DNA of 64,000 nucleotides from the NCBI GenBank assembly GCA_024673055.1, contig GCA_024673055.1_4537.1. One strand, 5' to 3'. The position numbers were made by a program, and so were the translations under genes. This DNA comes from a phage. The notes under the pieces were generated by a model that did not search any database, was not told the origin of the DNA, and saw only the letters and a list, made by a program, of their open reading frames with translations. Below, one piece after another: positions 50,316 through 52,039 of the stretch; within the stretch, counting starts at the first letter, position 1, and each line of letters begins with the position of its first letter.

Positions 50316-50394
50316 TGGAGGCGGGAATCGGATTCGAACCGATGATCTCCAGCATATGAAACTGGCGAGGACGACCAGACTCCTCTATCCCGCT
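50316..50394 (-). tRNA. tRNA-Met (anticodon CAT), CCA encoded
   Basis: Hand-folded cloverleaf: T-arm ATCGG-TTCGAAT-CCGAT, anticodon stem CCAGT/GCTGG with loop TTCATAT, D-stem GAGG/CCTC; the 1-72 pair is A-C (unpaired). Confidence 0.6.
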
Positions 50395-51458: not shown

Positions 51459-51464
51459 AAAGCT

Positions 51465-51541
51465 GGGACTCGGCAGGATTCGATACCTGCAATTTCAGAA
51501 GCCTCTTGGCGACTGGGGGTTTACCTTAACTCTACAAGTCC
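51465..51541 (-). tRNA. tRNA-like element, non-canonical (8-nt T-loop, no foldable anticodon arm)
   Basis: Acceptor GGACTTG/CGAGTCC and T-arm-like GCAGG-TATCGAAT-CCTGC, but no 5/7/5 anticodon arm could be found by hand. Confidence 0.3.
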
Positions 51542-51548
51542 ATAATTC

Positions 51549-51634
51549 TGGCGATGAGTATAGGATTTGAACCTATATCGTTCTTTCGAACACGGATTAA
51601 CAGTCCGCCGCTTAAACCATTCAGCCAACTCATC
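51549..51634 (-). tRNA. tRNA with anticodon GTT (Asn codons) on a long-variable-arm, Tyr-like body; CCA encoded
   Basis: Perfect acceptor GATGAGT/ACTCATC, anticodon arm GCGGA-CTGTTAA-TCCGT, 15-nt variable arm (GTTC-GAAA-GAAC), T-arm ATAGG-TTCAAAT-CCTAT; lies adjacent to tRNA-Tyr. Confidence 0.5.
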
Positions 51635-51640
51635 TTAATT

Positions 51641-51728
51641 TGGTGGTGAGTGATGGAGTCGAACCACCCGAATCGCAATGATAACAGATTTACAGTCTGC
51701 CCCGCTACCCCTACGGAATTAACTCACC
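51641..51728 (-). tRNA. tRNA-Tyr (anticodon GTA), type II, CCA encoded
   Basis: Acceptor GGTGAGT/ACTCACC, anticodon arm GCAGA-CTGTAAA-TCTGT, long variable arm, T-arm GGTGG-TTCGACT-CCATC. Confidence 0.65.
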
Positions 51729-51858
51729 TAAATACTAATATTTAAATTCTTTTTAAAATAGCCAGTGTTCACACCACTAACTATGAGTTATCGGTAAGAT
51801 GGTGGGGGCCATCTGCCGAAAGTTTACTCTATTAAAGTAAGCTATATTAAAAAGAACT

Positions 51859-51948: not shown

Positions 51949-52039
51949 TGGCGGAAGGAGGGAGAGTCGAACTCCCAAGGCTCTTTCAAGCTCGGCGGTT
52001 TTCAAGACCGTTTTCGTCGCCACGTCGATTTGCCCTTCC
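51949..52039 (-). tRNA. tRNA-Ser (anticodon TGA), type II, CCA encoded
   Basis: Acceptor GGAAGGG/TCCTTCC, anticodon loop CTTGAAA, long variable arm, T-arm GGGAG-TTCGACT-CTCCC. Confidence 0.55.

Follow-up and report, generated by a model that had tools for sequence, protein, structure and literature searches.

In bacteria, the tRNAs with a long variable arm (class II tRNAs) are those specific for leucine, serine, tyrosine and selenocysteine, and for serine the arm is itself a recognition signal. The subject here is a gene that combines such an arm with the asparagine anticodon GUU. It lies at positions 51549-51634, on the minus strand, of a 64,000-nt stretch of phage DNA (contig GCA_024673055.1_4537.1), the whole of which is called the window below, and it belongs to a large family of long-arm tRNAs-Asn found mainly in phages. 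Its nearest relatives are, by function, the tRNAs-Asn of Escherichia coli and phage T5 and, by shape, the class II tRNAs-Tyr and tRNAs-Ser; the nearest published oddity is the group of allo-tRNAs.

Asparagine identity in E. coli consists of the anticodon GUU and the discriminator G73, and can be transplanted into another tRNA (PMC9976931). The E. coli tRNA-Asn (genes asnT/U/V/W) is a class I molecule that shares with the window gene GUU, G73 and the 18 nt from G26 to U43, but differs in its 5-nt variable loop AUGUC, its 4-bp D stem and the acceptor pairs U1-A72, C2-G71 and C3-G70. The tRNA-Asn of T5 (T5t17) is likewise a phage-encoded asparagine isoacceptor with G73 and CCA, and is followed by the same rna3 element; it is, however, of class I, 78 nt long and diverged in its anticodon arm (GCAUC-UUGUUAA-GUUGA), whereas the window gene joins a host anticodon arm to a long variable arm. 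Class II tRNA-Tyr(GUA), one of which is adjacent, resembles the window gene in the 3-4-bp variable stem, the ~3 unpaired nucleotides on its 3' side, G34 and U35, but carries A at positions 73 and 36; on a Tyr profile the window gene reaches 19 bits, where tRNAs-Tyr reach 50-55. With class II tRNA-Ser it shares G73, the long arm and the 3-bp D stem, and the phage's own tRNA-Ser(GCU) is also 86 nt long with a GAAA-capped 4-bp arm. Unlike tRNA-Ser, the window gene is devoid of G2-C71 and A3-U70, and its arm has another register, with 0 nt preceding the stem and 3 nt following it, versus 1 and 2.

Among published oddities, allo-tRNAs combine a long arm with the anticodon of a class I amino acid, frequently carry G73 and include some phage examples; they have 8/4 or 9/3 layouts, D arms like those of selenocysteine tRNA (tRNA-Sec) and varied anticodons, and are presumed to accept serine or alanine (PMC5389517). 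In the long-arm Asn family, by contrast, the layout is the canonical 7/5, the anticodon is fixed as GUU and the acceptor end is of the Asn type. A precedent for two architectures within one specificity is given by Streptomyces coelicolor, where type I and type II tRNAs-Leu are charged by one leucyl-tRNA synthetase (LeuRS) (PMC6614811). The case is the reverse of the present one, leucine being normally a class II specificity with the class I form as the oddity, in a cellular organism and not a phage.

ARAGORN calls the window gene as tRNA-Asn(gtt), 86 nt in length, and the Rfam tRNA model (RF00005) matches it over model positions 1-71 with 62 bits (gathering score 29); 12 nt in the variable region fall outside the model as an insertion. 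The minimum-free-energy fold is a cloverleaf with an extra 4-bp hairpin, in agreement with the ARAGORN drawing. From 5' to 3' the RNA reads GAUGAGU UG GCUG-AAUGGUUU-AAGC G GCGGA-CUGUUAA-UCCGU, then GUUC-GAAA-GAAC-GAU AUAGG-UUCAAAU-CCUAU ACUCAUC G CCA (positions in Table 1), with all seven pairs formed in the acceptor GAUGAGU/ACUCAUC and a canonical 5-bp T stem. A preliminary description, made from the DNA letters, had reported the perfect 7-bp acceptor stem, the anticodon loop CTGTTAA (GTT) and the 15-nt arm GTTC-GAAA-GAAC, and ARAGORN, Rfam and the fold confirm all three. It had also called the architecture class II and unexpected for tRNA-Asn, which is borne out: the variable region exceeds 10 nt and forms a stem-loop, and the D stem has 3 bp with a G13.A22 mismatch. 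The class I body (4-5-nt variable loop, 4-bp D stem), to which all the short-loop tRNAs-Asn sampled belong, is absent; it is a description of known tRNA-Asn and not a stated recognition requirement of asparaginyl-tRNA synthetase (AsnRS). An alternative fold with a normal short variable loop, which the description had named as evidence that would count against it, was looked for in the thermodynamic fold, the ARAGORN call and the Rfam alignment, and none turned up. Two features were absent from that description, namely the location on the minus strand and the presence of G73 in place of the A73 of tRNA-Tyr.

The window is ~98-99% identical to many E. coli myophages of the genus Phapecoctavirus (phAPEC8-like, Stephanstirmvirinae), and dozens of related phages carry the gene with 97.7-100% identity; the two substitutions seen in total within Phapecoctavirus both fall on unpaired sites (3' linker and T loop). 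BLAST against 5,426 E. coli genomes yielded no copy of the 86-nt gene, only 34-nt chance matches inside yobD, hence neither the host nor a prophage has a copy at the DNA level in these genomes. Among deposited phage genomes, BLAST retrieved diverged full-length copies (74-76% identity), all annotated plainly as 'tRNA-Asn', in Justusliebigvirus, in Mydovirus and Seunavirus (Vequintavirinae) and in T5-like Epseptimavirus phages; in the last of these, a core of 72 nt, arm included, is 83% identical. The window-type gene itself has been annotated as tRNA-Asn hundreds of times and is an ordinary member of its phage group. Because it is near-identical in dozens of phages and has diverged long-arm counterparts in other genera, the gene is not a chance event.

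The extent of the family was estimated with a pattern made of the anticodon arm GGACUGUUAAUCC followed by GGUUC at long-arm distance. At least 120 matches were obtained in viral contigs. In bacteria and archaea (one genome for each of 185,579 species) 72 loci matched, of which ~17 have a real long-arm tRNA-Asn, most of these in dense arrays of 20-36 tRNAs (32-36 per 8 kb in Micromonospora and Verrucosispora, 26 in Methyloprofundus and 21 in a Flavobacteriales genome). A viral scan with the anticodon arm alone gave, among the matches listed, 13 long-arm loci (12 known and one new) and 97 short-loop Asn genes. Among the viral loci listed, the median number of tRNAs is 10 for the long-arm type and 3 for the short-loop type. 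As the anticodon arm is fixed in these scans, members with other arms are missed (e.g. that of Salmonella phage SalP219) and the scan set gives no statistics for this arm. A long-arm tRNA-Asn is often met with in tRNA-rich viral contigs and seldom in the cellular genomes scanned; the family is old and diverse, and travels in phages and mobile tRNA arrays. No published description of a long-arm tRNA-Asn in phages was found in the full-text literature covered, which excludes most subscription journals, and a paper on anticodon-loop evasion and another on a retron are without mention of it. The family thus seems undescribed, with an earlier description elsewhere being possible.

The reading favoured here, with a probability of roughly 70%, is that the gene encodes a working phage asparagine tRNA built on a class II scaffold, which would decode AAC and AAU and be charged by AsnRS. 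Its anticodon arm together with G26 is an exact 18-nt match to nt 26-43 of asnT, and the complete published AsnRS identity set, GUU and G73, is present. Host AsnRS would charge the tRNA through these two elements, on an anticodon arm identical to that of host tRNA-Asn, and the charged tRNA would add decoding capacity for both asparagine codons in Asn-rich phage genes. Asparagine codons amount to 58 per 1000 (5.8%) in the open reading frames of the window, structural genes included, which is ~1.5 times the ~39 per 1000 of E. coli in public codon tables. The gene is the sole tRNA-Asn in the window, and the sole annotated one in the region fetched from the near-identical phage Mt1B1_P17. Charging with serine or tyrosine would put ~6% of all codons at risk, including those of the structural genes beside the tRNA cluster.

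Profile hidden Markov models, one per isotype, were built from phage tRNAs labelled by their ARAGORN anticodons. On these the window gene scored 33.5 bits for Asn, 28.2 for Ser, 20.3 for Cys and 19.1 for Tyr, the Asn training set sharing the anticodon-arm sequence by construction; with the hairpin removed, the Asn score rose to 42.5 and the next best was 29.0. All control tRNAs were classed correctly (neighbouring tRNA-Tyr 50.3 and E. coli tRNA-Tyr 55.5 for Tyr, phage tRNA-Ser(GCU) 40.2 for Ser, E. coli tRNA-Asn 69.3 for Asn). An earlier run with 21 Asn training sequences had ended in a three-way tie (Asn 23.6, Ser 23.3, Tyr 22.2), and no isotype signal was left in it when the anticodon arm was masked. 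The profile test rejects Tyr; its bearing on Ser is taken up below.

The place of the gene beside a tRNA-Tyr had led the preliminary description to see in it a Tyr-like body and to propose a duplicated tRNA-Tyr whose anticodon changed from GTA to GTT; such a copy, if recent, might still be charged by tyrosyl-tRNA synthetase (TyrRS). The tRNA-Tyr(GTA) indeed lies 6 nt away (spacer 51635-51640), with acceptor GGTGAGT against GATGAGT, i.e. one pair apart. The anticodon stems also differ by one pair, G34 and U35, which matter for tyrosine identity, are kept, and the geometry of the variable arm (short stem, three unpaired 3' nucleotides) is nearer to phage tRNA-Tyr than to tRNA-Ser. This geometry is what stands of the Tyr-like body. 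The likeness of the two genes is limited to the acceptor stem (6/7 pairs) and the anticodon stem, whereas their D arms, T arms and variable-arm sequences are unrelated; overall identity is 68% to tRNA-Tyr, 73% to the phage tRNA-Ser(GCU) and 76-79% to long-arm tRNAs-Asn of other phage genera. Neither A73 nor GUA, the two marks of bacterial tRNA-Tyr, is found. A73 and U35 are critical for tyrosine identity, and G73 is an antideterminant for both TyrRS and LeuRS (PMC9976931). Moreover, in phage alia of the sister genus Justusliebigvirus the order Tyr-Asn is kept while the acceptor stems of the two genes are unrelated. In some family members the 5' half of E. coli tRNA-Asn is closely reproduced. 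Across ~100 loci, long-arm tRNA-Asn was not closer to Tyr, Ser or short-loop Asn genes of its contig than to those for other isotypes (acceptor and T-arm identity, means ~0.5). Recurrent local duplication from a neighbouring tRNA, considered as a general origin, was rejected for want of any isotype preference across these loci. With G73, 19.1 bits on the Tyr profile and nt 26-43 identical to asnT, the duplication proposed for the window gene finds no support, and a copied tRNA-Tyr is a very improbable origin. The charging identity, which the same description had left as unknown, is inferred from GUU and G73 to be that of asparagine.

The family, too, bears on the choice between asparagine and serine; it is represented by the 92 unique long-arm GUU tRNAs among the matches listed in the viral and the bacterial and archaeal scans; the counts that follow refer to these matches and to other tRNAs of the same contigs. 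G73 is present in 88/92 long-arm tRNAs-Asn (96%) and in all 19 short-loop tRNAs-Asn, versus A73 in 46/48 tRNAs-Tyr (96%). Pair 1-72 of the long-arm tRNAs-Asn is U-A in 64% and G-C in 32% (G1-C72 in tRNA-Tyr and in 89% of tRNAs-Ser), pair 2-71 is C-G in 46% and G-C in 37% (G2-C71 in 65/72 tRNAs-Ser, 90%), and pair 3-70 is C-G in 38% (A3-U70 in 88% of tRNAs-Ser). U1-A72, C2-G71 and C3-G70 are each the commonest state in the family and together make up the E. coli tRNA-Asn acceptor UCC...GGA-G. The variable stem has 3-4 bp, as against ~3 bp in tRNA-Tyr and 4-7 bp in tRNA-Ser, and the 3' linker has 3-4 nt, as against ~3 nt and usually 1 nt. The D stem is of 3 bp in 52/86 long-arm tRNAs-Asn, versus 4 bp in 17/19 short-loop tRNAs-Asn (3 bp in the other two), and G13.A22 is the commonest 13:22 state. 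The whole core of the family is class II-adapted. The variable arms are usually GNRA-capped, with a GNRA motif in 73/92 and GAAA in 36.

On this background a missense tRNA can be considered, in which seryl-tRNA synthetase (SerRS), blind to the anticodon, would read the arm and G73 and serine would be inserted at asparagine codons, as a deliberate or tolerated recoding. Several features of the window copy speak for serine and weigh against the asparagine reading. G1-C72, G73, C11-G24 and the long arm are part of the SerRS recognition set; the variable stem of the phage's own tRNA-Ser(GCU) has just 4 bp as well, the 4 bp of the window tRNA are within the Ser range, and the two molecules share their 86-nt length and a 15-nt variable region with GAAA loop. 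The Ser profile comes second overall, separated from Asn weakly (by 5 bits), and first once the anticodon is masked (in the earlier run with the small Asn set). Allo-tRNAs are a precedent, as long-arm tRNAs with non-Ser anticodons that insert serine (PMC5389517). Some charging of the window tRNA with serine is possible. Furthermore, class II synthetases generally approach their tRNA from the side of the variable loop, where a long arm could hinder AsnRS. Finally, short-loop and long-arm tRNAs-Asn(GUU) occur in one contig at 13 loci listed, often no more than ~10 nt apart and differing in their anticodon stems, which speaks against a simple redundancy of the two types.

Against serine, the window gene has A2-U71 and U3-A70, whereas G2-C71 is found in ~90% of the phage tRNAs-Ser and in all four of the E. 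coli and T5 tRNAs-Ser examined, and its linkers (0 nt on the 5' side, 3 nt on the 3' side) depart from the usual 1-nt 3' linker of tRNA-Ser. Across the family listed, the arms are shorter and the 3' linkers longer than in tRNA-Ser, U1-A72 replaces G1-C72 in 64%, and 46% carry C2-G71, an antideterminant for SerRS (PMC9976931). A SerRS partner would not require GUU or a host-identical anticodon arm to persist, and with asparagine at 5.8% of the phage codons, serine insertion would harm the whole proteome. Charging mainly by SerRS is therefore improbable, and the asparagine reading is retained.

The ancestry of the family, at least in enterobacterial myophages, points the same way. Two viral-contig members (L060 and L091) and that of Klebsiella phage VLCpiM5b match E. 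coli tRNA-Asn at 32-33 of the 36 positions from nt 8 to nt 43, compared with 29/36 for the window copy, and keep a 4-bp GUUC/GAAC D stem. This is read as descent from an ordinary tRNA-Asn in which the 5-nt variable loop was swapped for a short GNRA-capped hairpin.

The extra arm itself is under selection. Among 13 distinct sequences that share the layout of the 15-nt arm, each of the four variable-stem pairs varies on both sides, and 100% of the cells pair; when partner columns are shifted by one, pairing across the structure (14 pairs) falls to 40-47%. Since this subset was picked by predicted fold, the 100% is in part a matter of construction, which does not hold for the variety of pair types. 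In the 92 members listed, 84% of the variable regions can form a hairpin of at least 3 bp, versus 55% of shuffled sequences (maximum 72% in 1000 shuffles). Covariation, the enrichment of hairpins over shuffles and the restriction of the Phapecoctavirus changes to unpaired sites together lead to this conclusion. They also bear on the idea of a decaying pseudogene with a chance insertion in its variable loop, to which the pseudo-tRNA labels given by standard pipelines to neighbouring genes of the cluster lend some colour. With a perfect cloverleaf of 62 bits, 97.7-100% conservation in many phages with changes at unpaired sites alone, and compensatory changes in the inserted stem across genera and families, decay is scarcely credible.

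What the arm might do is suggested by antiphage nucleases that cut tRNAs. The cut made in E. coli tRNA-Asn(GUU) by AriB, the nuclease of PARIS, falls between nt 40 and 41, and the enzyme is modelled as also touching the D loop; the T5 tRNAs for asparagine, lysine and threonine together rescue cells and phages from PARIS (PMC12409363). Around the cut site the window tRNA is unchanged from the host sequence (UAAUC|C), and the new helix starts directly 3' of nt 43. A tentative proposal, to be taken as possible rather than probable, is that the arm alters the shape near the 3' strand of the anticodon stem, such that host tRNA-cutting defence nucleases handle the phage copy poorly; the determinants for AsnRS and for modification would stay host-like while the arm shields the tRNA. 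The Cys-Asn-Asp slot is of interest in this respect, being occupied in T5 by a short-loop tRNA-Asn with a diverged anticodon arm and in Epseptimavirus relatives by a long-arm tRNA-Asn with a host-like one, a contrast suggesting that a phage tRNA can be made unlike its host counterpart in either of two ways. Some observations argue against a shield. Phage Bas34, which has its own tRNA-Asn (short-loop or long-arm), still needed that of T5 against PARIS (PMC12409363), 13 loci listed have both types of tRNA-Asn, and long arms in the same contigs are not confined to known nuclease targets, since they occur on tRNAs for Cys, Trp, Glu, Ile and Met.

These other long-arm tRNAs are uncurated ARAGORN calls, some of which may be introns or misfolds. 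In the viral contigs listed they amount to 10/40 for Cys, 11/58 for Ile, 7/50 for Thr(UGU) and 5/42 for Trp, with further calls for Glu, Met, Asp, Gly and Phe, and Lys(UUU) is called in two bacterial arrays. A broader proposal, a little more doubtful than the shield, is that phage and mobile tRNA arrays systematically rebuild short-loop tRNAs (Asn most commonly, and also Cys, Thr(UGU), Trp, Lys(UUU), Glu, Ile and others) on a long-arm scaffold as a general counter-defence. The extra helix would then block or misposition nucleases of the PARIS AriB, colicin E5 or PrrC kind, while a host-identical anticodon arm would keep the tRNA acceptable to its synthetase and to modification enzymes; alternatively, the arm might be a handle for a phage factor.

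A different role has been considered for the molecule as a whole, that of a decoy or competitor that mimics host tRNA-Asn and soaks up a nuclease or a modification enzyme, or some other regulatory role, with decoding as a lesser activity. An anticodon arm identical to that of the host is a perfect mimic, and inhibition of AriB by competition from overexpressed viral tRNAs has been suggested by the PARIS authors (PMC12409363). The presence of an ordinary tRNA-Asn at the 13 loci listed and of a conserved tRNA-like RNA as constant neighbour also fits. Conservation, however, extends to the parts needed for charging and translation (acceptor stem, G73, CCA, T and D loops, and U1-A72 in many lineages), and the gene is the only tRNA-Asn of this phage and its relatives, whose genomes are rich in asparagine codons. 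A mainly non-decoding role is thus unlikely, if less so than charging by SerRS; being a decoy is moreover compatible with decoding.

The tRNA cluster extends on the minus strand from ~52425 to 50316 and is adjoined by structural genes. The neighbouring tRNA-Tyr is marginal for gene finders, being missed by ARAGORN, and its counterpart in the Mt1B1_P17 record is labelled 'tRNA-Pseudo-GTA' by RefSeq. Its D stem contains two G.U pairs, and in the variable and T arms it hardly differs from T5 tRNA-Tyr, a tRNA that becomes an effective amber suppressor according to the T5 record; the tRNA-Tyr of the window is probably functional. In the tRNA-like element downstream of the Asn gene, a stem of 7 bp resembles an acceptor (GGACUUG/CGAGUCC) and a hairpin resembles a T arm; a normal anticodon arm and CCA are missing. 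In T5, Bas26 and phage alia, too, an rna3 element comes after tRNA-Asn, and the pair of Asn gene and rna3 is conserved whichever type of tRNA-Asn is present.

The 130-nt spacer between tRNA-Ser(GCU) and tRNA-Tyr is ~96% identical over ~104 nt to that of alia, compared with ~76% for the nearby Asn gene. It contains two hairpins, GAUGG...CCAUC and CAGUG...CACUG, the latter followed by a U run, and could be a terminator/promoter unit or a small RNA; a tRNA-Lys(UUU) comes directly after it in alia and none is there in the window. The tRNA-Ser(UGA), with a D arm resembling that of T5 tRNA-Ser2, is missed by ARAGORN and appears in Rfam as a sub-threshold match to tRNA-Sec (37 versus 47 bits). The last tRNA of the cluster, tRNA-Met(CAU), has an A1.C72 mismatch and a large D loop, and is named 'tRNA-Pseudo-CAT' by RefSeq in Mt1B1_P17. 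In SalP219, an annotated 87-nt tRNA-Lys(UUU), not called by ARAGORN, owes its extra length to a ~12-nt insertion in the D loop and not to a variable arm.

Table 1. Positions of the long-arm tRNA-Asn gene, its parts and its neighbours in the window, and of related loci
Feature	Sequence	Position	Strand	Basis or remark
Complete long-arm (class II) tRNA-Asn(GUU) gene, encoded CCA included	window	51549-51634	-	ARAGORN, Rfam, fold
Acceptor stem, 5' strand GAUGAGU (nt 1-7); G1-C72, A2-U71, U3-A70	window	51628-51634	-	ARAGORN drawing
D arm GCUG-AAUGGUUU-AAGC; 3-bp stem GCU/AGC, G13.A22, typical class II form	window	51610-51625	-	
G26 and anticodon arm, GGCGGACUGUUAAUCCGU	window	51592-51609	-	identical to E. 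coli K-12 asnT nt 26-43
Anticodon GUU, reads AAC and AAU; loop CUGUUAA, stem GCGGA/UCCGU	window	51599-51601	-	
Variable arm, 15 nt: 4-bp stem GUUC/GAAC, GAAA tetraloop, three unpaired nt GAU	window	51577-51591	-	folds
T arm AUAGG-UUCAAAU-CCUAU	window	51560-51576	-	
Discriminator G73	window	51552	-	sequence
Encoded 3' CCA	window	51549-51551	-	sequence
Class II tRNA-Tyr(GUA), acceptor GGUGAGU, A73, 6 nt upstream of the Asn gene	window	51641-51728	-	Rfam, 39 bits
tRNA-like element homologous to T5 'rna3, putative tRNA-like RNA', just downstream of the Asn gene	window	51459-51545	-	
Spacer between tRNA-Ser(GCU) and tRNA-Tyr	window	51729-51858	-	
tRNA-Ser(UGA)	window	51950-52039	-	
tRNA-Met(CAU)	window	50316-50394	-	
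E. coli asnT	L196	4550-4625		18-nt match
Short-loop and long-arm tRNA-Asn together (example)	L093	1333-1506		
Short-loop and long-arm tRNA-Asn together (example)	L113	7608-7775		
Short-loop and long-arm tRNA-Asn together (example)	L120	6801-6966		
Short-loop and long-arm tRNA-Asn together (example)	L184	6167-6406		
Short-loop and long-arm tRNA-Asn together (example)	L190	2532-3219		
Long-arm call, Thr(UGU), 87 nt	L103, L016 (among viral loci L004-L123)			ARAGORN
Long-arm calls, Cys and Trp, 84 nt	L008 (among viral loci L004-L123)			ARAGORN
Long-arm calls, Lys(UUU), 88-90 nt	genome loci L127, L146			ARAGORN
SalP219 tRNA-Lys(UUU), 87 nt	L206	154-240		annotated

A widespread, selected and phage-enriched class II tRNA-Asn, found alongside long-arm versions of other short-loop tRNAs, seems to have gone unremarked. 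The plain label 'tRNA-Asn' given by annotation pipelines hides the oddity of the long arm. As a large and conserved family with an isotype outside Leu, Ser, Tyr and Sec, it breaks the textbook rule for class II tRNAs, and it raises the questions of whether a class IIb AsnRS can accept a long-arm substrate, how SerRS is avoided and why phages pay for the arm. Natural long-arm tRNAs with a non-Ser identity could also serve as scaffolds in tRNA engineering. Since antiphage nucleases are documented to attack host tRNA-Asn, and phage-encoded tRNAs are now regarded as tools of counter-defence, the arm may be a structural escape route, distinct from the anticodon-loop mutations described so far.

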